A stretch of 64,000 bases of DNA from an uncultured Planctomycetia bacterium (GCA_964373055.1 CAYJTM010000001.1:28688-92687); one strand, 5' to 3'; numbered from the stretch's first letter, positions 1-64,000 are shown. A program made the numbers and translations. Notes: a model not told the origin generated them from the letters alone.

Positions 1-1676
1 TGTTCCACCGCCATCGCGGCGGCGATTTCGGTCAACCGGAAGTTGAAGCCGATCAGGTTGGTCAGCGGCTCCGCGCCGGCCTGCTCGGCGACCGCCTCCG
101 CGTGGTTGCGGATCAGGGCCAGCCGGTCCCGCAGCTTCGGATCGCGCGTGACGCAAACCCCTCCTTCCCCGACATGGATCATCTTGTTGACGTTCAGGCT
201 GAAGATGCCGATGTCGCCGAAGGAGCCGACGAACCGCCCGTTGATCTTGGCGCCGTGCGCCTGCGCGCAATCCTCCACCACCTTGAGGCCATGCTTTCGG
301 GCCAGCGCCATCAGCGGCTCCATGTCGGCCGGCAGGCCGAATTGGTGGACCACCACGATCCCGCGCGTCCGCGGAGTGATGCAGCGTTCGATCGAGGCCG
401 GATCCAGGGAACCGGTCTCCAGCTTCACGTCGGCGAAAACCGGGATCGCGCCGTAGACCAGGACGCAGGAGGCCGCCGCCGACATCGTGTAGGGGGAGAC
501 GATCACCTCGTCGCCGTAGCCGAGCCCCAGCGCGCCGATCGCCGCGATGAGCCCCGAGGTGGCGCTGTTTACGCTGACCGCATGGGGGACGTTGTAATAC
601 TCTTCCCAGGCCCGCTCCAACTTTTGGATGGAAGGCCCGCCCCAGAAACTGAAGGGCGGCTCCGGGTTCCAGTTTCCCTCGAAGAGCGAAAGCTGGCCCC
701 TCTGCAGCACCTCCAGCGCGGCTTGTTTCTCCTCTTCGCCGAACGTCTGTTTCTCCGGCGTCGCCATCGCTTGCGCCGCCCAGACCAGCTTCATGGTTTG
801 CGCGGTTTCCTCCAATGGGAAACGCCCTTCCTCCAGCGCCTTGGCCGCCGCTTCGACGGCGCCGGGCATCGATCCCTCCAATCCGCGCCAGGGGGATCCC
901 TCCACGGGCACGAGAACCCGCTCCCCGCGGGGGGTGAGGCGAACCTCCTCCGCCTCGATCCGCTTTCCGAAATCCAGGAAACGGATCCTTCCCTGCTCGA
1001 ATTGGAACTCCCCCTCGAAGAGCAGATAGCCCCGTTCATCCACGGAACGCAGATGGACCGGCGCCTCTCCCACCTGAAGCTCCACGTGGAGGTCGGCGTC
1101 GCTTCCCCGCCCAAACCCGGCCTGCCGGGCGGAAAAGAGCTGGGGTTCCTGCGGGAAGAGCATCCGGAGCAGATCGATCCAGTGGGTGCCGTTGTTGATC
1201 CATCCTCCATAGGTGGTGCAGGACCCTTCCAGCAGCTTTCCGAACCGGTTGGAGCGGGTCCACTCCGCGAGCTTCCGGTGGGGCGGGTCGAACCGCCGCG
1301 TGTGGTTGACTATCACGGTTACGCCGGCCTCCTGGGCCCGCTGCCGGATCTCGGCCAGCTCCTCGGGTTTCAGGCAGATCGGTTTCTCGACGAAGAGCAG
1401 CCGCGGCCGGCGGTCTCCCGCGAAGATCTGCCGGATCTGCGGAAAGTGGAGCTCCGTCGGGCTGCAGAGGGCGATGACATCCGGAGGGCCTCCGGAGAGC
1501 AACTCGTCGAGGTGATGGAAACCCCGCGGGACGCTCCACTCCTTCCGGAAACTCTCCAGCCGGTCCCCCCCCGGATCCACGGCGGCGGTCAAGCGGAAAC
1601 GGGGATGCTGTGAGAAGGCCTTGGCGTGCCGGCGGCCCATCCTTCCGCAGCCAACGATCCCAACGGACCATTTCAT
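1..1676 (-). CDS. Partial (C-terminus beyond window start): fusion protein, N-terminal Gfo/Idh/MocA NAD(P)-oxidoreductase + C-terminal DegT/DnrJ/EryC1 PLP aminotransferase
   Basis: Manual minus-strand translation from ATG at 1676: MKWSVGIVGCGRMGRRHAKAFS... (Rossmann GxGxxG), continuing without stops through ...FGEEEKQAALEVLQRGQLSLFEG...AVSVNSATSGLIAAIGALG...FSLNVNKMIHVGEGG (PLP-lysine motif) to position 1. The C-terminal half is paralogous to the stand-alone DegT at 23764..25059. Not in the ORF track because it runs off the edge. Confidence 0.72.
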   Translation of the reverse strand, partial: MKWSVGIVGCGRMGRRHAKAFSQHPRFRLTAAVDPGGDRLESFRKEWSVPRGFHHLDELLSGGPPDVIALCSPTELHFPQIRQIFAGDRRPRLLFVEKPICLKPEELAEIRQRAQEAGVTVIVNHTRRFDPPHRKLAEWTRSNRFGKLLEGSCTTYGGWINNGTHWIDLLRMLFPQEPQLFSARQAGFGRGSDADLHVELQVGEAPVHLRSVDERGYLLFEGEFQFEQGRIRFLDFGKRIEAEEVRLTPRGERVLVPVEGSPWRGLEGSMPGAVEAAAKALEEGRFPLEETAQTMKLVWAAQAMATPEKQTFGEEEKQAALEVLQRGQLSLFEGNWNPEPPFSFWGGPSIQKLERAWEEYYNVPHAVSVNSATSGLIAAIGALGLGYGDEVIVSPYTMSAAASCVLVYGAIPVFADVKLETGSLDPASIERCITPRTRGIVVVHQFGLPADMEPLMALARKHGLKVVEDCAQAHGAKINGRFVGSFGDIGIFSLNVNKMIHVGEGGVCVTRDPKLRDRLALIRNHAEAVAEQAGAEPLTNLIGFNFRLTEIAAAMAVE

Positions 1677-1705
1677 CGCACCGACTCCTGCCGGTAGGCC
1701 TTCCA
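1673..1705. repeat. 33-bp exact direct repeat copy A (tcatcgcaccgactcctgccggtaggccttcca); contains start codon and SD region of gene 1
   Basis: Identical 33-mer re-read base by base at 1673-1705 and 3447-3479. Confidence 0.85.
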
Positions 1706-2482
1706 TCATTTAACGCACGCCATGATGGACCCCGTTGCAAAGAAATCCAAACCCGGTTTATCTTCGGCCCACGCCGCGATTCTTGAGGTAAACTTTGGCC
1801 ACACCCTGGAGAAAGGATACGGAATGATCAGCTTGTTGTAACTGCACTGAGCCGTCACCCTGCAGCCAGCATCCAGAAGCAGACGCCGGAACTGCCCTTG
1901 GGTGTACGTGTTGCGCCGGATCCCGGCCGGTTTCCGGATGGTGAAGCGAACGAGGGCGCGCAGGGGCCCTGTGGTTCTCACGAGAAGGTCGTCGCAACTG
2001 AATTTTCTCGGTACATTAAATACCAGCCTCGCCCCCGGCCTGGCCACCCGAAGAGCTTCTCGGAGGACCTGTCGCGGATCCTCAAAATACTCCAGCAGCC
2101 CCAACCCGATGACCGCGTCGAACGCCTCATCGGGATACGGCAGCGACTCCGCATCCGCGACTTCAGCCGTAAACCGGGACGTCAGCCCCAAATCGCGAAT
2201 GCACTTCTGAGCATGGCGAATCATTTCGGGAACGCTGTCCGCCCCGTGGTATTCGACCTCTCGCTCCTTGAGCAGCTCGATCAAGGCCCCTGACCCGCAG
2301 CCGGCGTCCAACAAACGCTGCCCCTTGAGATCGCCCAGCAGCTCCACCGCCTTGCGTCGCCTCACCAGAAAACTATAGCTGGCCGGATTCGATGGGTTAT
2401 AGAGCTCGCCCCAGCGATTGCCCATGGCGTAGTCGTCGAAGTGCGCCCGAACCACCCTCCGCTGATTGCTGGGAAGAGTCAC
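1706..2482 (-). CDS. Class I SAM-dependent methyltransferase
   Basis: 258 aa; LLDAGCGSGALIELL motif I, acidic post-I; 4-bp overlap with upstream deacetylase. Confidence 0.85.
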   Translation of the reverse strand: MTLPSNQRRVVRAHFDDYAMGNRWGELYNPSNPASYSFLVRRRKAVELLGDLKGQRLLDAGCGSGALIELLKEREVEYHGADSVPEMIRHAQKCIRDLGLTSRFTAEVADAESLPYPDEAFDAVIGLGLLEYFEDPRQVLREALRVARPGARLVFNVPRKFSCDDLLVRTTGPLRALVRFTIRKPAGIRRNTYTQGQFRRLLLDAGCRVTAQCSYNKLIIPYPFSRVWPKFTSRIAAWAEDKPGLDFFATGSIMACVK

Positions 2483-3450
2483 ACGACACCCATCCGATGA
2501 ATGAGCGGCGTCATCTTCGCCACCAAGATGCTCACTGGAGCGAAGTCATCGATCATGATGCGGGGCAGCCGATAGGGGCCGTCGCCGGATGAGACCATGC
2601 GGAGTTCTGTAGTCCAGGCCGACCGATAGCCGGCCATCCGGATTCCCTGAATCACCCGCTCATCGTAATTTCCGCTGGGAAAAGCAAAGTGGTGAACCGG
2701 CCGGCGGGTCCACTGTTCAAGCAGCTGTTTGGACGTCTGGAGCTCTGCGGCCAACTCCTCATCGCTGAGCTGGGTCAGTTGGGCATGGGTGTGGGAATGG
2801 CTCCCCAGCGTGACCAGATCCCAGTCCAAGCCGCGCAGATGCTCCCGCGATGCGAGCTGGAATCTCTGAAGGCGGGAAGCGGGAGGTTCCCCCAGCTGCT
2901 TTAGAAAGTCCGCCAGGAGCGGCTCTCCCCGCGCTGCATCCGTCTGTTTGAGCATCTTGCTCACCGAGGCGACGACATATCCCCGGTTCCAGGAGCGCAG
3001 GCTCCATCGCTGCCCATCGCAAACCAACTGGGTTTTTGGGCTGTACAGAATGGCCGCGCGCAGACGATCGAACCAGAAAATATCGCTGGAGCCAACGAAC
3101 GCGGTCGGGACAAACCAGGTAGCGGGAAGCCGGTGAGCCTGGAGGGTGGGCAGGATCTCCTGGGCAAACGAAGCGTAGCCATCGTCAAAGGTCAGGGTGA
3201 TCAGCGGTTTCCGGATGTTGGAAGACAGGCTCGCAAGAAATTCTTCGATCCCCACAACATCTGCGTGCTCTTTCAGGAACAGCGCGTGCTTCTTGAAAAC
3301 GCGCGGGTCCACATTATGATAGCTCAAAGCGATCCGACGCTGGCCGGATTCCAAGCGGCCCGCCAAACGCAATAGGCCTGATCCGTGAAGAACCGGGATG
3401 GCCACCCTCTTTAGAACATGCCGGAGTCTGTGATGAGATGGTGGGGTCAT
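2479..3450 (-). CDS. Polysaccharide deacetylase (NodB-like)
   Basis: 323 aa; TFDDGYAS and HSHTH motifs typical of the NodB/CE4 fold. Confidence 0.82.
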   Translation of the reverse strand: MTPPSHHRLRHVLKRVAIPVLHGSGLLRLAGRLESGQRRIALSYHNVDPRVFKKHALFLKEHADVVGIEEFLASLSSNIRKPLITLTFDDGYASFAQEILPTLQAHRLPATWFVPTAFVGSSDIFWFDRLRAAILYSPKTQLVCDGQRWSLRSWNRGYVVASVSKMLKQTDAARGEPLLADFLKQLGEPPASRLQRFQLASREHLRGLDWDLVTLGSHSHTHAQLTQLSDEELAAELQTSKQLLEQWTRRPVHHFAFPSGNYDERVIQGIRMAGYRSAWTTELRMVSSGDGPYRLPRIMIDDFAPVSILVAKMTPLIHRMGVV

Positions 3451-3479
3451 CGCACCGACTCCTGCCGGTAGGCCTTCCA
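3447..3479. repeat. 33-bp exact direct repeat copy B; spans stop of cytidylyltransferase gene / start of deacetylase gene
   Basis: Identical to 1673-1705; here it encodes the C-terminus ...WKAYRQESVR* of the 3447..4211 gene and the ATG of 2479..3450. Confidence 0.85.
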
Positions 3480-4211
3480 GCGCCGCTCCACGCCCCGGTT
3501 TCGATCGGCGAGCTCCGGGTGCTCCTTCATGAATTCAAGGATCTGCGCCAGCCCGAATTCGGGGCCGCGCGGATAGAGATGCTCGTAAACGGCGCTCACC
3601 ACCTCAAAATCCTCGCGCGTATCCACCTCCAGGTAAAGCTCCGGCTGACGGAATCCCGGAGGGGCTTCCAGGTTGCAGATCCGGTACCGCTCCGGCCGGC
3701 CCAGGGTGCCTAAGCTCACATGTTCCCTCTGCTCGGGAGATCGGGCCGTTTGCTCGGCGTCAAACAGGAGGCGGGAGGGATAGACCGTCACCTCCATGCC
3801 GGGCGGATAGGTGGTCTTCAGGGCGCTCGTGACGACGTCGTAGCGGCCCGCGTGCTTGAGGGAGAAACCGATGAACTGGTCGATCAGCAAGGGATCCGGC
3901 AGAGGGCTGTCTCCGAGGAACTCCGCATGAAGATCGCCCGGAAAGGCGCGCAACGCGCCGGCGATACGAGACAGCACATCCTCCTCGCTGCCGCGGAAAA
4001 CCCCTACCCCAAGCCGGCGGGCCAACTCTTCCAGCGGGTCATCCTGCGGGTTGGTGCTGGTGGCCAGGACGATTTGATCAATGAGCCGACTACGGCGCAG
4101 GCGCTCGATCTGCAACTCAATCATCGGTTTGCCCAGGATCGGCAGCAGCACCTTCCCGGGAAGCCGGGAGGAGCCGGTCCGGGCCTGGATCGTCGCCGTG
4201 ACGGTCATCAC
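3447..4211 (-). CDS. Cytidylyltransferase, SpsF/PseF/NeuA-like (CTP:sugar nucleotidyltransferase)
   Basis: 254 aa; IQARTGSSRLPGKVL N-terminal signature of the CMP-sugar synthetase family; paralog of 22393..23157. Confidence 0.82.
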   Translation of the reverse strand: MMTVTATIQARTGSSRLPGKVLLPILGKPMIELQIERLRRSRLIDQIVLATSTNPQDDPLEELARRLGVGVFRGSEEDVLSRIAGALRAFPGDLHAEFLGDSPLPDPLLIDQFIGFSLKHAGRYDVVTSALKTTYPPGMEVTVYPSRLLFDAEQTARSPEQREHVSLGTLGRPERYRICNLEAPPGFRQPELYLEVDTREDFEVVSAVYEHLYPRGPEFGLAQILEFMKEHPELADRNRGVERRWKAYRQESVR

Positions 4212-5332
4212 CCCATCACCTCCGCCCTCAGATCCAAGAGGAGCTCTGCGATCCGGGCCGCCGCGTCGCCTGAGAGCAGCCGGCGCCGGAAGTCGGACTC
4301 CGAAACGGAAACGCCGGCGCCAGAAAAGAGGCCCTCCGACAGGTGGGCCGCGATCCCTTCCGGAGAGCGGGCGGAACGGACCAGGCCTGTCTCGGTCCCG
4401 ATGAAGGGGACGGCGATCCCCTGGGCCGGCTGGTAGCTGACGGCCGGCCGGCCCAGCAGCGCCGCCTCCACCAGGAGCATCGAGGTCATCCCGACCACGC
4501 CATCGGCGGCCAGCAGACAGGCCCAGGGCGGCTCGGCCTGCGCGAGCAGGAACTCCCTGGCGCGCGCCAGCGGGCCGGGCCGAAAGCGATCCCGATCCTC
4601 TTTCGGATGCAGCTTCACCACCCCCTTCAGCCGCCGGCCGTCCCGGCCCTCAACGATCCGGAGCGCCTGCGCCAACCCTTCGAGGGCGTCCGTCTCGGTG
4701 TAGCCCCGGTCATGGGGCGTCCCGCGCCGGAAGTCCTCGGAAAAGAGCTCCGAGGCGAACAGGATCAACGTCGCCGGCTCCTCGCCCATCCAGGCCGCGC
4801 GCAGCTGCCGGGCCTGCTGCAGCAGGCCGGCGTCTCCCGCCATGGCGGCGAGAGACTGCAGATGCGGCTGGCCCGTGATTCTGAGGATCTCCCTGGGAAG
4901 CCCCTCCGCCACTGCCCGCTCCAGAGCGATTTCGTCCATCACGGAGATCTGATTGGGCAGCCTCAGACGGCCGGATCCCGGCTCCACGAACCGCTCCCGG
5001 TAGTTGGACCAATGATCCACCACCGACAACGCGGGAATGCCGTTTTCTTGGCCAAACCGCAGGATCTCTTTTTCGATGCTCCGTCCCCAGGAAGTCCCCA
5101 GCAAAAGGGCCTCAGGCGCAGCGTCGCGCCAGCGCTCGCGCAGGAACCGCTCTCGTTCGCCTCGATCGGCCGGCGCCTCTTCGGCCGCGACCCCTTGCTC
5201 CCGGAAGATCCGCAGCGCCGGTCCCTCAGCGACAACGCGCAGCTGCACTCCAGGGTTGGCCTCCAGCCTTCTTAAGACCGGCAGCAGGATGTTGGCTCCG
5301 CCGGCGTCGCGGGCGGCGACCCAGACTCTCAT
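4208..5332 (-). CDS. GT-B fold protein, PseG/SpsG-like (possible nucleotide-sugar hydrolase or 2-epimerase-like)
   Basis: 374 aa; sits between NeuB-like and cytidylyltransferase genes as in sps/pse loci; C-terminal GVVGMTSMLLVEAALLGRPAV resembles the MurG/PseG C-domain. Family assignment uncertain. Confidence 0.55.
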   Translation of the reverse strand: MRVWVAARDAGGANILLPVLRRLEANPGVQLRVVAEGPALRIFREQGVAAEEAPADRGERERFLRERWRDAAPEALLLGTSWGRSIEKEILRFGQENGIPALSVVDHWSNYRERFVEPGSGRLRLPNQISVMDEIALERAVAEGLPREILRITGQPHLQSLAAMAGDAGLLQQARQLRAAWMGEEPATLILFASELFSEDFRRGTPHDRGYTETDALEGLAQALRIVEGRDGRRLKGVVKLHPKEDRDRFRPGPLARAREFLLAQAEPPWACLLAADGVVGMTSMLLVEAALLGRPAVSYQPAQGIAVPFIGTETGLVRSARSPEGIAAHLSEGLFSGAGVSVSESDFRRRLLSGDAAARIAELLLDLRAEVMG

Positions 5333-6165
5333 GGGGTCTCCCGACCGGCGGCGGTTTTCGGAAACCGGTTTCGGACCCTCTCGCGGATGGCCAGCTCCGC
5401 CTCCACCGGTTTCTTCAGCGCGGTTCCCAGCAGCCGTTCGGCCTGGCGGATCATCCCCACCAGCTCCCGCAGCTCCTCCGGGGTGACCGACAGGACGTGG
5501 TCGGTCCCCGGCAGCGTCTTATCCAGCGTGAAATGCTTCTCGATGACGGTTGCCCCGAGCGCCACCGCGATCACCGGAGCCAGCGCCCCGATCGTGTGGT
5601 CGGAATAGCCGATGGCGTGGTTCGGAAAGGCTTCGCGCAGGGCCTGGATGGCCCGGAGGTTGGCGTCGGAATCCCGGAGCGGATACTGGGTCACGCAGTG
5701 CAGGATAACGACCTGGGGAACCTTCCGGAGGAGGTTCGCCGCCTCCCGGACTTCCCCCAACTCCGCCATTCCGGTGGAAAGATAGACCCTCTGCGCATGG
5801 CCGGCGACGTATTCCAACAGAGGGCGGTTGAGCATCTCCGAGGAGGCGATCTTGATGGAGCGCAGGCCCACCTTCTCGCAGAGGAAGCGGGCCCGCTCCG
5901 GCGTGAAGGGGGCGCTCAAGAACTCCACGCCGTTGTCGCGGGCCAGGGCCGCCAGCTCGAAGTGCATCGCGTCGGGCAGCTCCACCTGATGGAACCATTC
6001 CTTTTCCGGGTCTTGGTCGGAGATGTCCCTGCCCCGGTAGGACTGGAACTTGACGACGTCCGCGCCGGCGCGAGCCGCCTCAATCACCATCTGCCGCGCC
6101 CGGCTCCAGTCCCCGACATGATTCTCGCCGATCTCGGCGATCACCGTCGTGCGTGGGTTCGTCAT
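5329..6165 (-). CDS. NeuB-family nonulosonic acid synthase, TIM-barrel only (no C-terminal SAF domain)
   Basis: 278 aa; IAEIGENHVGD, KFQSY, KIASS, GYSDHTIG, EKHFTLDK motifs of NeuB/PseI/SpsE. Confidence 0.82.
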   Translation of the reverse strand: MTNPRTTVIAEIGENHVGDWSRARQMVIEAARAGADVVKFQSYRGRDISDQDPEKEWFHQVELPDAMHFELAALARDNGVEFLSAPFTPERARFLCEKVGLRSIKIASSEMLNRPLLEYVAGHAQRVYLSTGMAELGEVREAANLLRKVPQVVILHCVTQYPLRDSDANLRAIQALREAFPNHAIGYSDHTIGALAPVIAVALGATVIEKHFTLDKTLPGTDHVLSVTPEELRELVGMIRQAERLLGTALKKPVEAELAIRERVRNRFPKTAAGRETP

Positions 6166-6863
6166 CGAAGGGCTTCCTCCAGCTCAGGGTTGGGCCCGGC
6201 CTCCCGCAGCGCCTGCATGCCCCAGGCCTGCGCGAGCTCGCGCCACCCCTCATGACGCGCCTGGCGCGAGTGAGTCATGCCCGCGGCGTGCCGATGGTAC
6301 GTGTAGAGAGGGGCGGCGACGTGCAGGAACCTTCCCTGAACGCGCAGCCGAAGGTAGAGGTCGTATTCTTCCCAGTAGAAGGGGCGATACCCTCCGATCG
6401 CGCGGAGCAGCTCGGTTCGGAAGAGCGTTCCGCAGGCGATCAGGGAGTACAGGTTGTCAGGGTCCACCCGGACGTGCCGCTTCTCCTCCCCCTCCCATTC
6501 GGTGCGGTCCGGCACGGCGCAGCTGGCCTCGGGGGCCGCCTCCAGCGCGGTTGCCATCCGCTCCAGCCAGTCCGGCGCCGCCCGATCATCCGAGTCGATC
6601 CGGGCAAGGTACTTTCCTTGGGCCAGCCGAAGCCCGGCGTTGCAGCTGGCGGGCAGCCCCTGGTTCGGCTGGCGGATGACGCGGAGCCAGTCCGATTGAT
6701 GCGAGAGGATCTCCTGAGTCTCATCGGTGGAACCGTCGTTGATGACGATCACCTCCCACCGATCAGGAGGAAGAGTCTGCGCGCGGAGACTCCGGAGCGC
6801 TTCGGAAAGCAGGGCGGCCTGGTTGAAGGTCGGCAGGACAGCGCTTACCAGGGGGCGGCTCAT
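6162..6863 (-). CDS. Family 2 glycosyltransferase
   Basis: Start at internal Met (MSRPLVSAVLPTFNQ) gives ATGA overlap with the upstream gene stop; VINDGSTDET, DSDD motifs. The ORF-track N-terminal 93 aa is a read-through extension. Confidence 0.78.
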   Translation of the reverse strand: MSRPLVSAVLPTFNQAALLSEALRSLRAQTLPPDRWEVIVINDGSTDETQEILSHQSDWLRVIRQPNQGLPASCNAGLRLAQGKYLARIDSDDRAAPDWLERMATALEAAPEASCAVPDRTEWEGEEKRHVRVDPDNLYSLIACGTLFRTELLRAIGGYRPFYWEEYDLYLRLRVQGRFLHVAAPLYTYHRHAAGMTHSRQARHEGWRELAQAWGMQALREAGPNPELEEALR

Positions 6864-49647: not shown

Positions 49648-49649
49648 GG

Positions 49650-50426: not shown

Positions 50427-50431
50427 AGTTT

Positions 50432-56257: not shown

Positions 56258-56314
56258 CCCCGCTCCAGTAATGATTTCGGTGGCTGCGATAGTAGGCGAC
56301 CGTCCGCAGGCCGC

Positions 56315-57076
56315 TCATGGCTTGCTCCTCCAGCGGGCGTACCAGGGCAATGGGAAGCGCATGTCCGGCTTGTCTTCGACGCGGACCTCGCCGGGCCGGC
56401 CGCTCTTGAGCAGCACCGCCATCGCGGTCTCGGCGGTCCCGGTCTCCAGGAGATAACACTCCTTCGGCAAATAACGGTTCTCCTTCCCGCCCAGCACCAT
56501 CCGGTGGCGCTGCACGGTCACCTCAGCTTTCGGGCGGCGGCGGCGCACGAAGTCCACTGTTTCCTGCAGGTTCAGGACCAGGTAGGGCATCCAGCCGTCG
56601 TAGTGGTATTGGCAGGAGAGCTCCGGGTCCATCACGGTTTCGCCGGAATCCCGCGTCCGCAGCCGGACCACCACCGCCTCGGTGGCCCGGTCCAGAAGCT
56701 GCCCGAGGAAACCGAATGGATCGGTCTGATGATGGACCACGTCCTTGGAGTAGACCACCTCGGCGCTCTCTGGCTGCCCGCCGGAAAGCAGCGTCTCGGC
56801 AACCGGCCTTTCCGGCGAATGAAGAAGGAAAAGACCCTTCGGGTATTTCTGGCGCGCCCTCTCCAGCGCCACGCGGGAAACGTCGATGCCGCAGTACCGC
56901 ACCGAGGGAAATTGAAGGCGCAGGTACCGATGGAATTCTCCGGTGGCGCAACCCACCTCCACCAGCGAGGCACCCGGGTTCCGGGAAAGTATCCCCCCCA
57001 GCATCCGCACGTCGTTGAATGCCCCATAGTGGCCGGCCAGCGCCCGATCGGACAAGGCGCTGCGCGCGTCGAACAC
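56315..57076 (-). CDS. Class I SAM-dependent methyltransferase
   Basis: 253 aa, GTG start; LVEVGCATGEFHRYL motif I; flanked by 57-61 nt intergenic gaps. Confidence 0.68.
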   Translation of the reverse strand: MFDARSALSDRALAGHYGAFNDVRMLGGILSRNPGASLVEVGCATGEFHRYLRLQFPSVRYCGIDVSRVALERARQKYPKGLFLLHSPERPVAETLLSGGQPESAEVVYSKDVVHHQTDPFGFLGQLLDRATEAVVVRLRTRDSGETVMDPELSCQYHYDGWMPYLVLNLQETVDFVRRRRPKAEVTVQRHRMVLGGKENRYLPKECYLLETGTAETAMAVLLKSGRPGEVRVEDKPDMRFPLPWYARWRSKP

Positions 57077-57137
57077 CCGGACGTGGCCGGTGTTCTGCCA
57101 GTCCTGATGCCACTTCGAATCCGGTTTGGTCGTGGCT

Positions 57138-58703
57138 CTAACCGACGTAGGTCAGCATCCGGTCCGCTTCGTCCACTCCGTAGACCATCTCGTAAAATTC
57201 CTTGGAGAGTTTTTCGAACAGAGCGTTCCCCTCCTCATCGAACGTTTCGGCCCTCTGGATTTCCGGGTAGCGCTCCTTCGGCAGGCGGACGTAGAGCGGG
57301 AACACGCGCTGAAGGCTGAGGATCTCCTTTCCGGAGAGATAGGGCGGCGGCATATTCAAAATGGATTCCGCGATCACCGAGGTGGTCTGCCGCTCAGGGT
57401 CCAGCCAGCCCTCCTTGAGGGCCATCTCCCTTAAGACCGTGCCGTGGTAGGGCACAAAGACGTTGACGCTCAGCGCGTCGAACGTGCCGATCTCCCGGTT
57501 GAACATCATCGACTCAAACATCAACTCCCGCGTCTCGTAGGGGAAGCCCACGATGTTGTTTAGCGTGTACGGGATGCCCACCTTGTGAACGATCTGGGAC
57601 TGCTGCAGCATCTTCTCGTTGGAGATGTTCCGCCGCAGGATCTCCTTGCGGTACTTTTCATTGCCGTGCTCGAGCCCGAAGGAGATCCGGTAGCAGCCGA
57701 CCGATTTGAGCCAGGCCAGCTTCTCCTCGTCGATGTCCTCGAACCGGGTCTGGAACCAGAAGGGGATCTTGAACTCCTTGTACATCTCGGTGAAGTCGGC
57801 GATCTCCTGCTTGGGCCTCGCCATGAAGGCGTCGTCGTTGATGTAGAAGAATTCCGGCGAGTAGCGCTTGATCAGCGACAGGATCTCCGTGCGGAGTGCC
57901 TCGATGCTCTTGCGCCGCAGGAAATAGCCCTGTCCGCTCTCCTTCGCGATGGTAACCTGGGCCGGCGAGTTGCAGAAGGTGCAGGTGTAGGGACAGCCCC
58001 GGTAGGTCTCCAGCGGGATCGTCTTCCAGATCTTGGCCCCCAGCGGGCGGTAGAAGCGCCGCTCGTCGAACAGCGAGAAGTCGGCCATCACGTCGTTGAT
58101 GTTGACCAGCGGCCGCTTGGGGTTGCGGGTCACGTTGCCTTCGGAACCCCTAGCCCACGTGCCTTGGATGTTGGCCGTGGAGGCCCCGTTCCTCACCGCC
58201 TCGCAGAAATCCACGACCGTCTCCTCTCCCTCGCCCAGGCCGATCGACTGGATGTAGGGGGATTGGATCACCATCTCGGGCGCCATCGTCGTGAAGACCC
58301 CGCCGACCAGCGTCCGAATCTCCGGGAAGCCCTCGGCCAGCACCTTCAGCATGTCCCTGGCCTGCGGCCAGGTGTCCTCCACCAGCGTCGAGAAGATCAC
58401 CGCCTGCGGCTTGAACTGCTCCACCTTTTTGACGAAATCGCCCAGCAGATCCTCGCGGGCGTCACCGAACAGGGCCTTGGCGTCGAATCTCCGGCTGTTC
58501 AGCAGGCTGTTGGCCCGTGTGACCGGCAGCGGCTCCTTCATGAACTCGTAGGAGGCCAGGTAGGGGGTGCAGTCAAAGAGGTCGATCTCGTAGCCTTGGG
58601 CTTTCAGGAGGGTCGTGAAGAGCCCCACCGCGTAGGAAGGGGTGAGCATCATGCTCAGGTTCGGGTAGGCGATCAGAACCCGAAATTTAGATTTCTCGAT
58701 CAC
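57138..58703 (-). CDS. Cobalamin-binding (class B) radical SAM methyltransferase
   Basis: 521 aa; N-terminal B12-binding domain (FRVLIAYPN...), radical SAM CPYTCTFC (CxxxCxxC); protein K/E/F/Y-richer than neighbours. Confidence 0.88.
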   Translation of the reverse strand: MIEKSKFRVLIAYPNLSMMLTPSYAVGLFTTLLKAQGYEIDLFDCTPYLASYEFMKEPLPVTRANSLLNSRRFDAKALFGDAREDLLGDFVKKVEQFKPQAVIFSTLVEDTWPQARDMLKVLAEGFPEIRTLVGGVFTTMAPEMVIQSPYIQSIGLGEGEETVVDFCEAVRNGASTANIQGTWARGSEGNVTRNPKRPLVNINDVMADFSLFDERRFYRPLGAKIWKTIPLETYRGCPYTCTFCNSPAQVTIAKESGQGYFLRRKSIEALRTEILSLIKRYSPEFFYINDDAFMARPKQEIADFTEMYKEFKIPFWFQTRFEDIDEEKLAWLKSVGCYRISFGLEHGNEKYRKEILRRNISNEKMLQQSQIVHKVGIPYTLNNIVGFPYETRELMFESMMFNREIGTFDALSVNVFVPYHGTVLREMALKEGWLDPERQTTSVIAESILNMPPPYLSGKEILSLQRVFPLYVRLPKERYPEIQRAETFDEEGNALFEKLSKEFYEMVYGVDEADRMLTYVG

Positions 58704-58775
58704 TTGGCCAGTTTAGCACGGACGATCCCTATCGTCAATCGCTGCAGCCGGTTACCTGCTCAACGAGGAGACCGG

Positions 58776-59492
58776 TTACGCCCGAGCGGGGGTCTTGGGA
58801 CCGGTGAAGCGGGCGCCGTCCTTGAGGAACATCTGCACCGTTTCCTTGCTGTAGGGGTGCACCAGCATCCCCTCGATCAGCGAAGGGGCCGCCGTGACGA
58901 TGTGGGCCCCCGCCTCAAACCACTCGATGATGTTGAGCACCTCGCGTGTCGAGCCGACGATGATCTTGGCCGGACTGCCGAAGGCGTCGAGCAGCCCGCG
59001 CAGGCGGCGGATCTCCAGCCGGGAATCGTAGCCCATGTTGTTGACGCGCCCGCCGAACAGCGAGACGTAAGTGGCCCCTGCTTGCGCCGCCAGCAGGCAC
59101 TGCTGGGCACTCATCATCGCGGTCACATTGACCCGGATGTCCAGGTCCGTTTCCAACTCATGCACCAGCTTCAGGTTCTCGGTCCCCCCTTCCGGCCCGT
59201 GGATGGGGATCTTGACGTTGATGTTCTTCGCCCAGCCAGAAAATTGCCGGGCCTGCCAGAGCATCTCCTCGGGTTCGTTGGTGGTGACCTCGACCGAAAC
59301 CGGCAGCGGGTCCACTAGACTGGAGATCTGCCGGATCTGCTTCTCGATGCCGGGCCACCCGCCGGAGACCCCCTCCTTGGCCAGGATCGTTGGGTTGGTG
59401 GTGACCCCCCGGATGATCCCCATCTCGTGCAGCTTCTGGATCTCCTCCAGCTTGGCCGTATCGAGGAAGATGCCGATCAGATCATTGCTCAT
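58776..59492 (-). CDS. Transaldolase / fructose-6-phosphate aldolase (TalC/FSA-like)
   Basis: Start MSNDLIGIFLDTA (59492, ATGA overlap); FLDTA...GVTTNP signature and Schiff-base Lys region. Confidence 0.78.
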   Translation of the reverse strand: MSNDLIGIFLDTAKLEEIQKLHEMGIIRGVTTNPTILAKEGVSGGWPGIEKQIRQISSLVDPLPVSVEVTTNEPEEMLWQARQFSGWAKNINVKIPIHGPEGGTENLKLVHELETDLDIRVNVTAMMSAQQCLLAAQAGATYVSLFGGRVNNMGYDSRLEIRRLRGLLDAFGSPAKIIVGSTREVLNIIEWFEAGAHIVTAAPSLIEGMLVHPYSKETVQMFLKDGARFTGPKTPARA

Positions 59493-60115
59493 GTCCGCTG
59501 AACCTCCTTCAAGCCCGTTGAGCCTTCCCATTTGTTTTGGCGCAGCATGAGGCGCGGGTCCGACACGATCGCGTGCCAGACCACTCCCTGAAAGGCCTCC
59601 GTATGCGGCGTCACTTGGTTTTCGTTCACCGTCGGGATCACCAACACCAGATCCCCTTTTTTCTTCGTGTAGCCGCCGTCCCGGCCGACGAGGCCCAGCA
59701 CGTCCATGCCGCGCCGCTTCGCCTCATCCACGGCGCAAACCAGATTGGGGCTGATGTTTTTCTCGCGGCTGCCGCCGCCGACAGAGAAGATCATCAGCGC
59801 GTCCTTGGAGGCCGCCTGGCTCACCTTCATCCACTCGGAGAAGACGGTCTCCCACCCCTCGTCGTTCGTGCGGGCGGTCAGCTCCGAGACATTATCCGTG
59901 GGGGCGTAGGCCTCAATGCCGGCCAGTTTCCTAAAATCGTTCACCGCGTGGCTGCAGTTGCCTGCGCTGCCTCCGACGCCGCACAAGAACAGCCGGCCCC
60001 GCTCCTCCCGAAGCCGGACCAGTCGCTGGACCATCCGGTCCAGCAGGTCGAGGTCCAACCCGGCCGCGATCTGCCGCGATTCCTCAAAAAACCCCCGCAG
60101 GAACTCCTTGCTCAT
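59489..60115 (-). CDS. gmhA: SIS-domain sugar-phosphate isomerase, GmhA (sedoheptulose-7-phosphate isomerase)-like
   Basis: 208 aa; LCGVGGSAGNCSHAVNDF matches GmhA GNGGSAxDAxH; single SIS domain, no CBS domains. Confidence 0.75.
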   Translation of the reverse strand: MSKEFLRGFFEESRQIAAGLDLDLLDRMVQRLVRLREERGRLFLCGVGGSAGNCSHAVNDFRKLAGIEAYAPTDNVSELTARTNDEGWETVFSEWMKVSQAASKDALMIFSVGGGSREKNISPNLVCAVDEAKRRGMDVLGLVGRDGGYTKKKGDLVLVIPTVNENQVTPHTEAFQGVVWHAIVSDPRLMLRQNKWEGSTGLKEVQRT

Positions 60116-61077
60116 CGCTTCTTCGCCACCACGCGCGCGAAGGAGCTCAAACCCCGGCGCTGCAGGAAACTCTGGAACTCCGCCCGCGTCTCCGCGTCCG
60201 CTTCCACGACCTGCCGCTCAAAACGGGACAAGGCGACTGACGGGTCGGCCCGCAGATGGGCCTGCACGATCTCCACGTCCAGCACGCCCGGCGTGGAAAC
60301 CTCGAGCAACTTGAAGCCCTCGTTTTCGATCAGCCGCCGGAGTCCCTTCAGGCTGAAGCAGTTGGTCCGGTCCGGCGGGTAGAGGTACCGGCTCTTGAGC
60401 CCCAGAACCTCCAGGTCGAACCCGGAAGCGACGAGGGCCGTCGCGAAGAGCAGCCCGCCGTCGGTCAGCCGGTTCGAAGCCCCTTTCAGCAGGCCGCGCG
60501 GGTCATCCACCCTGTCCAGCGACTCCAGCATCACGATCGCCTCCGCGCTGCCCTGCTCCCGCGCGGCGCCGTCGTGGGCCAGATCCATCTCGTTGACGGC
60601 GCGGATCTCGGCGAAGGAGCGGCACTCCTTGAGCAGCGCGCTCATCTCGCTCGGCGGGGTAACCGCTTCCAAGATGCGGGCCTTCCGGATCCCTTGCAGC
60701 GCCAAGGTCTCGCGGATCCAGTCCAGCTTCGGGGCATAGACGTTGTCGGTCCGCGATTGGGAAAGGTCCCCGTTCAAGCCGCCCGGCGCGTGGCGGGAGC
60801 GGCTGATTTCAGCCAGCAGGGCCTCCCATTCCTTCGGGCCGGAAAGGCGCATCAGGAAGAGGGAGCCGGTCTCGGCGCAGAGGCCGTACGGCAACCCCTC
60901 CACCTCTCCGAGCGGCTGCAGCCCTTTCCCCGTGATCGGGGAAACCGCGCGGGCACGGCCGGCCTTCTCCAGCAGCCGGCGCGTGGCCGACAGGCAGAGC
61001 TCCCTCAGCGAGGAGATCCTCTCCAGCGGCTTCACGGAAGAGAGCGGGAACGTCTGCCCTGTTTGGATGGATCTCAC
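60112..61077 (-). CDS. Hypothetical protein, divergent methyltransferase-like fold
   Basis: Likely GTG start at 61077 overlapping the upstream TGA (GTGA); IVMLESLDRVDDPRGLLKGASNRLTDGGLLFATA resembles MTase motifs II-III, but motif I is degenerate. Confidence 0.45.
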   Translation of the reverse strand: MRSIQTGQTFPLSSVKPLERISSLRELCLSATRRLLEKAGRARAVSPITGKGLQPLGEVEGLPYGLCAETGSLFLMRLSGPKEWEALLAEISRSRHAPGGLNGDLSQSRTDNVYAPKLDWIRETLALQGIRKARILEAVTPPSEMSALLKECRSFAEIRAVNEMDLAHDGAAREQGSAEAIVMLESLDRVDDPRGLLKGASNRLTDGGLLFATALVASGFDLEVLGLKSRYLYPPDRTNCFSLKGLRRLIENEGFKLLEVSTPGVLDVEIVQAHLRADPSVALSRFERQVVEADAETRAEFQSFLQRRGLSSFARVVAKKR

Positions 61078-62084
61078 CGGACCTCCTGCTTGGAAAGAGC
61101 GTAGATCTCCTGGACAAGCCGCATCACCTGCCGGGCATCCTCCAGCTGGCCGTGCGTGGCCGGTCGCTTTTGCTGGATCGCGGCGATAAATTCGTTGACC
61201 TCCCGGTCCCACGACTCGTCCCGGTCAAAATGGATGATCTCTTCCCGCGGGTTCCCCAGCGCGAGGGCTTCATCCTCGAACTGCCTTTTGCCGATCACCA
61301 GCTGCTCCCGGCCGTAGCTTCCGGTCTGGGAGAGGAAACCGCTGGCGATCAGGTAGCCGTTCTCGCAGCCGATCTCGACGCGGAAGGTGTGCTTCCAAAG
61401 GGTCGCCGAGGAATGGAGGAAGGCGGGGACCCCCCGCTCCGACTTCAGCAGCACAAACGCGTTGTCCTCGACGCCGCACTTCCAGAAGGAATCGGCCAGC
61501 ACGGCGTCCACCACCCGGAACGGACCGCCGAAGAACTGGAAAAGATCCAGCATGTGGATCCCCTGGTCGAGCAGGATCCCGCCGCCGGAGACCTCGGGGT
61601 CGTTGCGCCAGCTTTCCCGGTAGCGGGCTCCGCCGGACTTCCCGTAGGTCCCCTTGATGTAGAGGACTTCACCCAAGGTCCCTTCATCCAAGAGGGCCTT
61701 GGCCGACTGCACCGACGGGTGGAGCCGGTGGTTAAACCCGAAGACCAGCGTCTGGCCCGGCGCCTGCTCCGCGGCGGCGGCGATGCGGCTCAAATCCTCC
61801 CAGTTTCTTCCGGGCGGCTTCTCGCAGAAGACATGCCTGCACCGCTGGAGCGCCTCCACGCAGAGATCAGCCGTCACGTTGTTGGGCGTGCAGATGAAGG
61901 CGGCGTCGTGCTCCTTCCATGGCACCGGCGCTTGAGCGGGCAGCAAAGAGCCGTTCAGCTCCGAGGCCGAAGCCGGGGAGGGAGCAGGGTCCACCACGGT
62001 GATCCTCTCCACGGCGGGGTGTTTCCGCAGCGATTGATAACGGATCTTTCCCATGTAGCCGTAGCCGAAGATCAGGCAGTTCAC
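61074..62084 (-). CDS. Gfo/Idh/MocA family NAD(P)-dependent oxidoreductase
   Basis: 336 aa; N-terminal Rossmann IFGYGYMGK, EKP motif (CEKPPG), C-terminal GFNHRLHP. Confidence 0.85.
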   Translation of the reverse strand: MNCLIFGYGYMGKIRYQSLRKHPAVERITVVDPAPSPASASELNGSLLPAQAPVPWKEHDAAFICTPNNVTADLCVEALQRCRHVFCEKPPGRNWEDLSRIAAAAEQAPGQTLVFGFNHRLHPSVQSAKALLDEGTLGEVLYIKGTYGKSGGARYRESWRNDPEVSGGGILLDQGIHMLDLFQFFGGPFRVVDAVLADSFWKCGVEDNAFVLLKSERGVPAFLHSSATLWKHTFRVEIGCENGYLIASGFLSQTGSYGREQLVIGKRQFEDEALALGNPREEIIHFDRDESWDREVNEFIAAIQQKRPATHGQLEDARQVMRLVQEIYALSKQEVR

Positions 62085-63619
62085 GCGAGAACCTCCAGAA
62101 ACGCCCTGAGAGAAGTGTCGTCCACAGGAATAGCATAAGATCTCACAAACTCACTTGCAACAGTCCATTCCTTTTTGGAGGAGGCCTCCCCCGCCACTGC
62201 GTACCGGCTGAGGATCCCCTCCAGCTCTTCGAGCCCCTCCGCGGTCTCTTTCCACTGCGAAAGGGCCGAGAGGGAGTCCAAATCCGGCAGCGACCGTTCC
62301 CTCAGATAGACGGGCTTCAGGCCCGTGCGAACCGCGTACAGGACCGAAGAGGACCCCCGATAGAGCAGCACCGAGGAGCGGGCAAAATCCTCCTCCACCG
62401 CCTTGGCCGTGGAAACCTCGAGATTCGGGATCTCCGCCGGGTCGCGCCCCAAGCTGGAGCGGATCTGAGTTTTGGGGGACGGCAAGATCGGATGACACCG
62501 CAGGATGAAGTGGTGGTCCGGCAGCCGCTCGGCGATGCGCGCCGCCGTCTGGAACAGGAGCGACATCTCCTCGGCGTGGGCCTCCGGCAACACCAGCACG
62601 GTCTTGCGCCCGGGAACCGGCATGCTGCCGTTTGTCGCGGCGGTCCTCAGGCCGGCGCTAGAGGAAGCGCCGCCACGCGCCTCAGCGCAGCGAAAGGTTC
62701 CGAAGGGGATCAAGCGGGCGCCCGGATGGGCCGGCCGCAGCATTTCGGCGGAGTGGGGCCCCAGGCAAAGGACCGCGTCGGGTTTCGCGGAGAAGCGGTC
62801 CCGGCCCGGGAGACGAAGCATCGAAAGCTGGTGTGGGTGCAGGATCGTATGTTGATAACCGATGGTTTTGCAGGAGGGATGCGCCTCCTTGGCGGCGGCC
62901 CAGGCGAACTGTTCCCATGGGTGCCCCTCGTAGAGTGTGAGCATCCCTCTCGGCTTCCAGATCTCAGCGGCCCGTTTAAACATCGGATAGGTCAGCCCCT
63001 GGAGCAGGTGCCGGAAGGAAAGGCAGTCCAGCATCGCCCGCTTGGCCACTTCGGCCGTGAGCCCCGTGGTCTTGGAGCCCAAGCGGCTCAAATACCGGGA
63101 GGTGGCCCATTGAGAAAAGACCAGCCGGAGCGGAGCGGAAAGAGGCAAGAGGACCATCTCATGCAAATTCCAGGTTTCTGGGTCGGACGCAAGGCGCGGA
63201 CCTCGCCACGCGGCACCCCTCGGGTAGCTGTAGAGGGTGAGCATTCGCAGCCCCTTCTCCTGCAGCCGTCGCCGCAGATCCCCGTAGTAAAAATCCCCCT
63301 CCGCGCCCTCGCCCGTCTCAAACCGCCAGCTCTTTGCCACGAGGTCGAAGCGCTGCGAGGCGAGCGCCCGCAGCGCCGTCGAGTGCCGCGCCCGAATTTG
63401 CAAGAGCCGCGCGGTGAGAGTGAGCGCGTAAAGGAGCGAGAAGAGGGCGGAAGCCGCGCGTCGAAGATCTCCAGGCCCGCGCCGCGGCGGGCCCAGCAGC
63501 TCTCGGTGCGCCGGGTGGATGGGGTGCTTCATCTGCATCCAGGGGATGGCCAGCAATGGAACCTCCGGGCACCTTTCCCGGACGGCCTGGATCGCTTCGT
63601 GCAGGGAGTTTAGGCTCAT
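62081..63619 (-). CDS. Hypothetical protein (512 aa), possible capsule-synthesis (KpsC/KpsS-like) type transferase
   Basis: Start MSLNSLHEAIQ (63619, ATGA overlap); two HP motifs (YEGHPWEQF, ILRCHPILP). Weak family evidence. Confidence 0.5.
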   Translation of the reverse strand: MSLNSLHEAIQAVRERCPEVPLLAIPWMQMKHPIHPAHRELLGPPRRGPGDLRRAASALFSLLYALTLTARLLQIRARHSTALRALASQRFDLVAKSWRFETGEGAEGDFYYGDLRRRLQEKGLRMLTLYSYPRGAAWRGPRLASDPETWNLHEMVLLPLSAPLRLVFSQWATSRYLSRLGSKTTGLTAEVAKRAMLDCLSFRHLLQGLTYPMFKRAAEIWKPRGMLTLYEGHPWEQFAWAAAKEAHPSCKTIGYQHTILHPHQLSMLRLPGRDRFSAKPDAVLCLGPHSAEMLRPAHPGARLIPFGTFRCAEARGGASSSAGLRTAATNGSMPVPGRKTVLVLPEAHAEEMSLLFQTAARIAERLPDHHFILRCHPILPSPKTQIRSSLGRDPAEIPNLEVSTAKAVEEDFARSSVLLYRGSSSVLYAVRTGLKPVYLRERSLPDLDSLSALSQWKETAEGLEELEGILSRYAVAGEASSKKEWTVASEFVRSYAIPVDDTSLRAFLEVLA

Positions 63620-64000
63620 TTTACGAGTTTCCCCACCAAAGTGCGGACGGCCCGGACCGGGCGAGTGCGGAAAGACCGGGCGATCTCTCGGAGCCATTCC
63701 CGGTACCGGCCGTGGGCCAGGAACCAATCCGCCCGGAAGATGTACGAGTAGGAGAGACCGTCCCGGAGGATCTCCCGCTCCTCGCCAGCATAGTCGTCTC
63801 CCTCCAGCAACCGCTGGAAAACCTCGATGTACTCATCGGCGGCCTTCAGGCTGTAGGAATCTTGGGCAGGGTACCGGCGGCAACCCACCAGCGCCTCGGG
63901 CAGGTTGATCGCGCGGTACCTCCTGAGGAACCGGATGAAGAGCTCCCTGTCCGACGCGTACCGGTAGCGCTCATCGTACCCGCCGGCATCCAGCAGCGCT
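63616..64000 (-). CDS. Partial CDS (N-terminus beyond window end), hypothetical protein
   Basis: Minus-strand frame open from 64000 down to the TGA at 63616 (manual translation ...ALLDAGGYDERYRYASDRELFIRFLRRYRAINLPEAL-VGCRRYPAQ...LVGKLVK*). The ORF track shows only the 90-aa tail because of the GTG-as-M convention. Confidence 0.5.
   Translation of the reverse strand, partial: ALLDAGGYDERYRYASDRELFIRFLRRYRAINLPEALVGCRRYPAQDSYSLKAADEYIEVFQRLLEGDDYAGEEREILRDGLSYSYIFRADWFLAHGRYREWLREIARSFRTRPVRAVRTLVGKLVK

Follow-up and report, generated by a model that had tools for sequence, protein, structure and literature searches.

A 64-kb single-strand gene array from an uncultivated bacterium is probably part of a modular surface-glycan locus

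Introduction

Does a densely packed array of glycan genes, at least 64 kb long, serve one very complex product from one operon, or is it a composite of parts that related bacteria combine in other ways? This question is raised by a 64,000-nucleotide stretch of DNA labelled as an uncultured Planctomycetia bacterium (GCA_964373055.1, CAYJTM010000001.1:28688-92687; hereafter, the window, with positions counted from its first letter). A preliminary description made from the sequence had presented the whole window as one co-directional glycan supercluster. Our analyses indicate that it is likely (with a probability of roughly 0.75) to belong to a locus of at least 64 kb for the synthesis and tailoring of surface glycans, composed of modules lying head to tail, in a bacterium of the Omnitrophota. 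Nucleotide-sugar genes clustered with glycosyltransferases, and an exporter (g32), are among the marks of a surface-glycan locus, and both are present. The window is an unusually large and compact example of a locus type that is already known and, on the present evidence, does not represent a novel type of system. Omnitrophota are uncultivated, mostly ultra-small, and thought to be attached to or to prey on other cells (PMC10066038). At least 64 kb given to surface sugars must be a sizeable share of a probably small genome, and no description of Omnitrophota glycan loci was found in the literature. Much of the locus consists of lineage-specific families, and it offers concrete targets, both enzymes to express and sugars to seek in cell envelopes.

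Gene organization

Because the GC content of the window is 64% and long spurious open reading frames (ORFs) occur in every frame (201 ORFs of at least 100 aa), GC content at codon positions was used for gene calling. Across the whole window, the phase with maximal third-position GC (GC3) switches only at the handover between successive minus-strand ORFs, and the ORFs with a coding-type contrast between GC3 and second-position GC (GC2) are nearly all on the minus strand. The outcome is a single unbroken chain of 57 minus-strand genes (g0 to g56; g0 and g56 are cut by the window ends), with a coding fraction of 99.6%. This agrees with the preliminary description, in which every supported gene, about 57 in all, lay on the minus strand. 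Pfam matches were found for 45 of the 57 proteins, and g40 additionally exceeds the NCBIfam WbuX cut-off. Plus-strand genes with homologs, the observation that would have told against that description, were not seen among the ten largest plus-strand ORFs (398-739 aa), none of which matches a Pfam family at E<=0.01; they are regarded as shadow ORFs in DNA with a GC content of 64%. A simple longest-ORF caller produced false plus-strand genes in the window itself and was dropped as a measure of strand bias in relatives. Searches of the window returned no tRNA and no Rfam family. The plus strand is C-rich nearly throughout, which fits leading-strand genes, and coding-strand bias alone could produce the same skew. 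At both window ends the locus is cut off, and no contig was returned by exact look-ups of g26, g40 and g1.

The genes are packed with very little space between them. Forty-five of the 56 junctions (80%) overlap, by 1-20 nt, and 30 (54%) are 4-nt overlaps, comprising 21 ATGA, 8 GTGA and 1 TTGA; the remaining overlaps are 1, 8, 11, 14, 17 or 20 nt long. The earlier statement that most junctions are ATGA does not hold, since ATGA alone makes up 38% and only all NTGA 4-nt overlaps together reach 54%. GTGA junctions do occur as stated, at eight rather than "at least four" positions (or seven, should the true start of g53 be the ATG that lies one base downstream), and gaps of at least 5 nt span the stated 5-72 nt range but number eight (72, 61, 57, 28, 14, 12, 7 and 5 nt) instead of about nine. 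In calling starts, the -4 position was favoured wherever present, a choice backed by gene calls on contigs, Shine-Dalgarno (SD)-like motifs and relatives. Calls on independently assembled contigs were identical for about 30 genes, except for g10, the start of which was corrected to the -4 TTG, and g53, for which the independent call is the ATG at -1. Of the 56 starts, 24 are preceded by an SD-like core at a distance of 4-17 nt, compared with 16% of internal ATG/GTG codons (p=1e-6). The rate of 4-nt overlaps (30/56) is higher than in two relatives analysed with the same pipeline (7/39; Fisher p=6e-4). Stops and starts overlap at 80% of junctions, and the upstream gene often contains an SD-like motif, which makes coupled translation of neighbours likely. 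The array is an extreme natural case of gene packing and of probable translational coupling.

Glycosyltransferases, membrane proteins and tailoring enzymes

Eight glycosyltransferase genes are present, five of type GT2, two of type GT-B and one GT87. The last, g25 (38413-39726), encodes a GT-C membrane glycosyltransferase that scores 39.4 bits against a cut-off of 25, and the polytopic membrane protein g18 (44915-46300) has a weak PMT_2 (GT-C) match below its cut-off (21.9 against 26.1). The 243-aa GT2 protein g22 (41280-42011) has a DAD motif and resembles, at the family level only, the DPM1-like polyprenyl-phosphate sugar synthases. Four more polytopic proteins match no family: g10 (52640-54355; 571 aa, about 10 transmembrane (TM) segments), g12 (50432-52015; 527 aa, about 8 TM segments), g48 (9148-11481; 777 aa, about 13 TM segments) and g49 (6860-9151; 763 aa). 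At the family level, the GT-C part of the polyprenyl-phosphate/GT-C glycosylation that had been proposed is thus borne out, with g22 as a candidate for the polyprenyl-phosphate part. GT2 enzymes are also encoded by g17 (46293-47198), g50 (6162-6863) and g41 (16650-18101; fused to CTP_transf_3), and GT-B enzymes by g8 (55088-56257; Glycos_transf_1) and g28 (33003-35999), the 998-aa product of which has two GT-B (Glycos_transf_1) modules and DUF218. The previously noted ABC exporter is g32 (27037-28764), a fusion of ABC_membrane and ABC_tran in which Walker A and LSGGQ are present.

The paralogues g48 and g49 share 49% identity and have 11-13 TM segments. Sixteen homologues of this lineage-restricted family were found, one of them a protein named Candidatus Omnitrophica, and a profile of the family had no match in the PDB; a GT-C nature is a guess. 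The stretch around g12 has a low GC content (55% against 64%). In this respect g12, which encodes an unassigned 8-TM protein, recalls the Wzy-type polymerase genes of O-antigen loci, which are also low in GC; no family match was found for its product.

The tailoring capacity is large. At least eight methyltransferases had been described, and eight S-adenosylmethionine (SAM) methyltransferases plus a B12-binding radical-SAM enzyme with a CPYTCTFC motif (g6, 57138-58703) were found at the family level. SAM methyltransferases are encoded by g3 (60112-61077), g7 (56315-57076; gene call independently confirmed), g23 (40411-41283), g24 (39716-40414), g38 (20277-21011), g39 (19192-20280) and g55 (1706-2482), and g21 (42011-43315) encodes a sugar C-methyltransferase (Methyltransf_13/14). 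The sulfotransferase, formyl/acetyl transferases and amidotransferases listed earlier were likewise recovered, as a sulfotransferase (g31, 28761-30065), a formyltransferase (g42, 15946-16653), a GNAT N-acetyltransferase (g35, 23154-23735), an AsnB-type glutamine amidotransferase (g29, 31109-33001), the WbuX N-acetyl-sugar amidotransferase (g40, 18098-19192; NCBIfam 345 bits against a cut-off of 203) and an amidase (g37, 21008-22396). Polysaccharide deacetylases are encoded by g43 (15029-15949) and g54 (2479-3450).

Taken as a surface-glycan locus, the window would work as follows. Several CMP (cytidine monophosphate)-activated acidic sugars, and possibly a nucleotide-activated phosphonate, would be produced in the cytoplasm, where their tailoring would comprise methylation, N-acylation, formylation, amidination, amidation and sulfation. 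GT2 (GT-A) and GT-B enzymes would assemble them on a lipid carrier, and the ABC exporter g32 is predicted to flip the product across the membrane. Outside the membrane, GT87, the PMT_2-like protein and, probably, further polytopic enzymes would extend the glycan, with the DPM1-like GT2 enzyme providing the polyprenyl-phosphate sugars, while overlapping stops and starts with SD-like motifs in the upstream genes would couple translation of neighbours. Observed are the gene chain and its strand, the geometry of the junctions, the protein families, and the conserved but shuffled modules of relatives; what the products are, which lipid carries them, how they are exported and that translation is coupled are inferred.

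Several points weigh against this reading. No Pfam family for an initiating phosphoglycosyltransferase (WbaP/WecA), Wzx, Wzy/WaaL or Wzz was found in the 57 proteins; genes for initiation, polymerisation and attachment may lie outside the window or among the six unassigned polytopic proteins. Almost all enzymes fall below equivalog cut-offs, so no product can be named. Lipid A-core, protein or another polymer would each be a candidate acceptor. The module boundaries used below are a reading of synteny in a handful of relatives, and both coupling and polycistronic transcription are read from sequence.

Comparison with known loci places the window near O-antigen regions. The Leptospira rfb locus is a large, unidirectional lipopolysaccharide (LPS) locus, and long capsule and O-antigen operons are read through with RfaH/ops or UpxY antitermination. 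The ops/JUMPStart element GGCGGTAG occurs twice in the window, on the non-coding strand only and at chance level, and is absent from the coding strand. Leptospira carries nonulosonic-acid genes (PMC3438082), and its rfb locus is the main serovar determinant (PMC10958091). Like the window, Leptospira rfb and O-antigen loci hold tens of genes for nucleotide sugars, glycosyltransferases, tailoring and export, with nearly all of them on a single strand, are modular and variable between relatives, and may contain nonulosonic-acid genes. Unlike O-antigen/LPS loci, the window yielded no match to Wzx/Wzy/Wzz, WaaL or initiating transferase families, and has instead many GT-C-type and unassigned polytopic proteins. 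Its packing is also much tighter (80% of junctions overlap), it includes a phosphonate enzyme and a sulfotransferase, and its host belongs to the Omnitrophota.

Next to the exporter lies g33 (25052-27040; 662 aa), the candidate for the "TagF-like" polymerase of the preliminary description. That assignment could not be upheld. Neither g33 nor any other window protein matches Glyphos_transf (PF04464), even at E<=10; g33 has no Pfam, NCBIfam or PDB sequence match, and a profile of 48 members finds no TagF chain in the PDB. The family is small and unnamed, with 191 representatives among 1.84 billion proteins. An AlphaFold model built from the alignment of 48 members (pLDDT 94) has a GT-B fold in Foldseek searches, with TagF/TarL at E about 1e-6 (TM-score 0.53-0.57 on the target, with a large root-mean-square deviation), and with OtsA (trehalose-6-phosphate synthases) and UDP-GlcNAc (uridine diphosphate-N-acetylglucosamine) 2-epimerases matching equally well or better. 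TagF/TarL with TagGH thus shares with the window the GT-B fold, the Foldseek matches and an ABC exporter as neighbour, a pairing that recurs elsewhere: on an unrelated contig, an exporter (42% identity) and a g33 relative (45% identity) are adjacent, with the same 4-nt overlap. In contrast, g33 lacks Glyphos_transf and is a generic GT-B protein, the exporter is of the MsbA/PglK type with a fused ABC_membrane rather than ABC-2 domain, and CDP (cytidine diphosphate)-glycerol/CDP-ribitol genes are missing, with no CTP_transf_like or IspD family among the window proteins. A more distant g33 relative adjoins NeuB+SAF and B12 radical-SAM genes, which points to a CMP-sugar donor instead of a TagF-type one. 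We infer that g33 is a transferase that uses a cytidine-nucleotide sugar and is coupled to export. A 1,244-aa relative of g33 (P0122), considered as a fusion with an ABC exporter, proved not to be such a fusion.

Activated acidic sugars

The window contains two NeuB-family genes (g44, 14371-15045, a short form; g51, 5329-6165), four CTP_transf_3 cytidylyltransferases (g15, g36, g41 and g53), three DegT-type aminotransferases (g34, 23764-25059; g47, 11474-12478; and part of g56), an NDP (nucleoside diphosphate)-sugar epimerase/4,6-dehydratase (g46, 12459-13403) and short-chain dehydrogenases. The truncated g56 (3-1709), a GFO oxidoreductase fused to DegT, may truly start at ATG 1676. The two NeuB homologues have Pfam E-values of 3e-71 and 4e-31, lack the SAF domain, and score 269 and 115 bits in NCBIfam against cut-offs of 340-400. 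Only g15 (48117-48884), a KdsB-type CMP-ulosonate cytidylyltransferase, is above a curated cut-off (NF003952, 200 against 193 bits); g36 (22393-23157), g41 and g53 (3447-4211, with its start at GTG 4211 or ATG 4208) are far below the NCBIfam equivalog cut-offs. A CMP-sugar synthetase is found near each synthase: g53 is the second gene downstream of g51, and the g41 fusion is the third upstream of g44. Both score below the PseF/KdsB cut-offs. As for a hydrolysing 2-epimerase/nucleotidase (NeuC/LegG/PseG), no Epimerase_2 was found in the window, and g52 (4208-5332; 374 aa), at the expected position, matches no family.

With the nonulosonic-acid pathway (NeuB/PseI/LegI), the window therefore shares NeuB near CTP_transf_3, DegT, a dehydratase/epimerase and N-acyl transferases, but its NeuB proteins are SAF-less and low-scoring and Epimerase_2 (NeuC/LegG) is absent. 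The CMP-nonulosonate synthesis previously proposed stands as far as the NeuB and cytidylyltransferase families go, but not as regards known nonulosonate products. Because the NeuB homologues and all cytidylyltransferases except g15 are below equivalog cut-offs, the products of these modules are better termed unknown amino-ulosonic acids than known nonulosonates.

A second gene set, within g0-g16, is conserved in relatives and matches no named pathway. This core consists of a SIS-domain sugar-phosphate isomerase (g4, 59489-60115; GmhA-like below cut-off), a fructose-6-phosphate aldolase/transaldolase family enzyme (g5, 58776-59492), an HpcH/HpaI class II pyruvate aldolase (g9, 54352-55107), a HAD phosphatase (g11, 52012-52647), two short-chain dehydrogenases (g13, 49650-50426; g14, 48892-49647), the KdsB-type enzyme g15 and a D-2-hydroxyacid dehydrogenase (g16, 47191-48120). 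To judge from these families, it presumably makes a CMP-activated 3-deoxy-ulosonic acid. [quoted passage not shown] Therefore, a Kdo-like sugar, if made, would be made by another route.

A truncated pyruvate kinase, g30 (30062-31096), adjoins the sulfotransferase gene. Its 344-aa product has the pyruvate-kinase barrel without the C-terminal regulatory domain and scores 265 bits in NCBIfam, where the cut-off is 432. It might have a part in supplying phosphoenolpyruvate (PEP) to the NeuB-type synthases and the PEP mutase.

Phosphonate enzyme

PEP mutases have the signature EDKxxxxxNS. The protein encoded by g26 (36666-38423) has a PEP_mutase domain (PF13714, E 1.4e-56) fused to an NTP_transf_3 nucleotidyltransferase, and its residues 111-120 read EDQRFPKLNS, with Q in place of the signature K and the later K, N and S kept. 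EDQ is otherwise limited to the two closest g26 relatives (P0001 and P0003; 86% and 78% identity), and EDK occurs in 82 other loci, including all 18 more distant proteins of the g26 alignment. PEP mutase depends on a coupling enzyme to pull its equilibrium, which may be of the Ppd, FrbC, PalB or VlpB type, VlpB belonging to the 2-hydroxyacid dehydrogenase family (PMC8942020). No thiamine-pyrophosphate enzyme, HMGL-like or Aminotran_1_2 family was found by Pfam among the window proteins, and neither Ppd nor a 2-aminoethylphosphonate (AEP) transaminase was found in the window or in the 10-kb flanks of the related locus L001. The only candidate coupling enzymes would be the 2-hydroxyacid dehydrogenases g16, 10 genes upstream of g26, and g45 (13400-14374), 19 genes downstream.

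Nucleotidyltransferase-fused PEP mutases are associated with phosphonate tailoring of the cell surface (Rice et al. 2019, PMC6697681; PMC8942020). Like the Ppm-PntC fusion (PMC6697681; branch-point inventory in PMC8942020), g26 combines PEP_mutase with NTP_transf_3 and is located among glycan genes; in contrast to Ppm-PntC systems, Ppd and AEP transaminase are absent from the window, and g26 has EDQ, not EDK. Of the phosphonate module in the preliminary description, the PEP mutase-nucleotidyltransferase fusion is therefore real, but with the EDQ motif and no phosphonopyruvate decarboxylase in the window, the module is not supported in the form described.

The presence of a PEP mutase also raises the idea that the window is a secondary-metabolite cluster, making a phosphonate or aminoglycoside-like small molecule together with its exporter, instead of a surface glycan. 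Natural-product clusters commonly contain the PEP mutase, B12 radical-SAM enzyme, numerous methyltransferases, amidotransferases, sulfotransferase and ABC exporter that are present here. However, the PEP mutase is of the fused form tied to surface tailoring (PMC6697681, PMC8942020), KdsB- and NeuB-type enzymes are present, the eight glycosyltransferase genes are of GT2, GT-B and GT-C (GT87) type, and at least six polytopic membrane proteins, including the GT87 and PMT_2-like ones, are encoded. In addition, Pfam detects no NRPS (nonribosomal peptide synthetase), PKS (polyketide synthase) or ATP-grasp genes among the window proteins. A small-molecule cluster is thus a very improbable explanation, and a surface-glycan locus remains the preferred one.

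Source lineage and gene order in relatives

A g26 relative at 86% identity was found in an ENA (European Nucleotide Archive) metagenome. Among species-representative genomes, the best g26 matches (59-64% identity) are Candidatus Omnitrophota metagenome-assembled genomes (MAGs), many of them from groundwater, and others are labelled "uncultured Planctomycetia". Because of these matches, and because the g48 family includes a Candidatus Omnitrophica protein, we conclude on sequence similarity that the window comes from an uncultivated high-GC (64%) Omnitrophota lineage. Since the closest relatives come from groundwater metagenomes, groundwater is the probable habitat.

Within this lineage the gene families persist while their order changes. 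A 150-kb groundwater contig (L001) contains 15 window homologues among 18 one-strand genes, namely those of g15, g11, g16-g19, g21, g22, g24-g26, g28, g27, g29 and g48. In L010 the order is g0-g3, PEP mutase, g4, g5, g7-g9, g11, g13-g15, g38 and g16, and in L006 and L004 the PEP mutase gene is at other positions again among the same genes. A contig of an Omnitrophica MAG (L092) has 23 genes on one strand, with the same core families and a g48 relative, and L077 has the trio g45-g44-g41. The gene families and the single-strand layout, as far as these contigs indicate, are a clade trait, and the order is fluid. Of the single supercluster described earlier, the co-directional glycan array is thus confirmed, whereas a check of synteny locates its sub-modules in relatives in shuffled order. 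The recurrence of these modules in relatives, in other arrangements, fits a composite that is being rearranged, as surface-glycan loci usually are, better than one fixed pathway.

In terms of this composite, module 1 (g0-g16) would be the core for synthesis of a CMP-activated 3-deoxy-ulosonic acid. Module 2 (g17-g29) would be a membrane module with GT2, GT87 and PMT_2-like proteins, the C-methyltransferase, the PEP-mutase fusion, the 998-aa double GT-B protein and AsnB. Module 3 (g30-g33) would combine the truncated pyruvate kinase and the sulfotransferase with the MsbA/PglK-type exporter and the unnamed GT-B transferase. Modules 4 and 5 (g34-g47 and g50-g56) would be NeuB-type amino-ulosonic pathways that include aminotransferases, deacetylases and cytidylyltransferases as well as enzymes for N-acyl, formyl and amidino tailoring; the two lineage-specific 13-TM paralogues g48 and g49 would stand outside them.

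Transcription units

If the window were instead a single operon, all 57 genes would form one transcription unit for one very complex glycan. The unbroken co-orientation, the 99.6% coding fraction and the 45 overlapping junctions out of 56 favour such a unit, as does the number of terminator-like sites at 44-64 kb, which is not enriched over shuffled sequence (25 compared with 19+-5). Yet the relatives hold the modules in other orders and combinations, in which they must be functional in other contexts, and at least four separate cytidylyltransferase-centred pathways suggest several products or precursors. The base composition is uneven (55% GC in the g12 region, atypical codon positions in g6), and gaps of 57-72 nt, the three largest in the window, are grouped around g6 and g7. 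The largest (58704-58775, 72 nt) has a sigma-70-like site at 58738-58710 (TTGACG-17-TAAACT, with TG before the second hexamer, i.e. an extended -10), the only one that a consensus scan found in 44-64 kb. The lack of internal promoter space, which the preliminary description had stressed, does not prove one operon, because promoters may lie within coding sequence and this gap has a candidate site. Therefore, a single 57-gene operon seems unlikely, and a modular locus read from a few long transcription units is probably closer to the truth.

It would be bolder to combine two proposals, that the core is an undescribed route to a CMP-3-deoxy-ulosonic/ulosaric acid in which a class II pyruvate aldolase replaces the PEP-dependent KdsA/NeuB, and that the whole of at least 64 kb is one translationally coupled transcript. 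Both being correct is quite improbable; if they were, the single coupled transcript of at least 64 kb would rank among the longest bacterial operons.

The gene g6 has GC contents of 0.55/0.37/0.89 at the three codon positions, against about 0.66/0.47/0.80 elsewhere. It is located between the two largest gaps (58704-58775 and 57077-57137), the third largest is just downstream of g7, and the position of the B12 radical-SAM gene differs among relatives. These features suggest that g6 may have moved recently and may be read from a promoter of its own.

Support from independent assemblies

A chimeric contig, or strain variants collapsed during assembly or binning, could in principle mimic a composite array. 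Independent short-read contigs do break at the same places (3450 and 30929), and an exact 33-nt repeat around g54-g55 makes the number and placement of these two genes dependent on the assembler. However, contigs from Logan assemblies of four sequencing runs match the window at 3450-13008, 30929-36726 and 40043-57992 with 99.98-100% identity, which reproduces about 33 kb. The organism occurs in the samples of runs ERR4904390-92 and ERR3478686. Since independent contigs agree to this degree, the array is not an assembly artefact, at least over these three stretches. The 33-nt repeat accounts for the break at 3450, on the assumption of k=31 contigs, and relatives hold the same gene families on one strand. 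An artefact is therefore extremely unlikely as an explanation of the window, and a genuine modular locus is retained. Contigs of two independent runs (L087 and L089) both stop exactly at 30929, inside g30, where no repeat accounts for the stop; a boundary that varies between strains, or reduced coverage, could lie behind it.

Other genes

A few genes belong to none of the groups above. The C-terminal part encoded by g0 (63616-63999), cut by the window end, is faintly GT2-like (Pfam Glyco_tranf_2_2, E=0.044 only; GC3.83) and has a homologue in L010, as does g1 (62081-63619; 512 aa, 43% identity), which matches no Pfam or NCBIfam family. A GFO/IDH/MocA oxidoreductase is encoded by g2 (61074-62084; Pfam). 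Between the GT-C-like protein g18 and the methyltransferase g21 lie g19 (43654-44928), which encodes a membrane-anchored protein with DUF4330 and TIG, and g20 (43302-43652; 116 aa, one TM segment, no family). The signal-anchored product of g27 (35992-36651) has a weak transglutaminase-core match.

Repeated sequences

Two kinds of repeat were found within the array. The first, an exact 33-nt direct repeat and the only long one in the window, has copies at 3447-3479 and 1673-1705, spaced 1774 nt apart. The former covers the 3' end of g53 (its last ten codons), an SD-like GGAG and the ATGA junction, and the latter is inside the 5' end of g56, where the Rossmann motif MKWSVGIVGCG starts at the ATG of the repeat (1676). 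The copies bracket g54 (deacetylase) and g55 (methyltransferase), which suggests a two-gene cassette that may have been inserted, or may be able to be lost, together with a duplicated coupling junction. At an assumed k=31, the repeat would also explain the breaks of short-read contigs at 3450 and about 1706.

The second is an element of about 42 nt, the two copies of which form a 41-nt inverted repeat between g48 (10780-10825) and g1 (62647-62692), in opposite orientations and both in-frame. Its consensus is RGGCC-GGCGCTAGAGGAAGCGCCGCCACGC-GCYTCWGCGCAG, and it is open in four of six frames. Each arm encodes a loop absent from homologues, namely from all 16 g48 relatives, including one that is 85% identical, and from the g1 relative of L010. 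A hidden Markov model search of 1.6 Mb of collected loci found the repeat only in this lineage, no published report of it was found in the literature, and its hairpin potential is not clearly better than that of shuffled sequences (z -0.5 and -1.9).

The 25-nt core of this repeat occurs on 15 metagenome contigs at about 10 distinct sites (L097-L111), and also at the end of L003. It is always within long coding ORFs, and all four stop-free frames are used. Host genes, which are of housekeeping type and were identified by eye from translation motifs, are those for YchF, ornithine carbamoyltransferase, FabD, QueG, an aminotransferase, a histidine kinase and a squalene-hopene cyclase, the last with two copies in opposite orientations. 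The YchF hosts are of the Omnitrophica type. One ortholog carries the element; in another, 86% identical, it occupies the same site in reverse orientation, and five orthologs in the alignment (75-89% identity) are empty there; a related variant is at another site in three more distant YchF proteins. Rickettsia palindromic elements, as cited in PMC1779305 and PMC10969869, are selfish DNA inserted in-frame in protein genes. The present repeat is likewise in-frame within genes but much shorter, and by analogy it has the look of a miniature mobile element able to persist within coding sequence.

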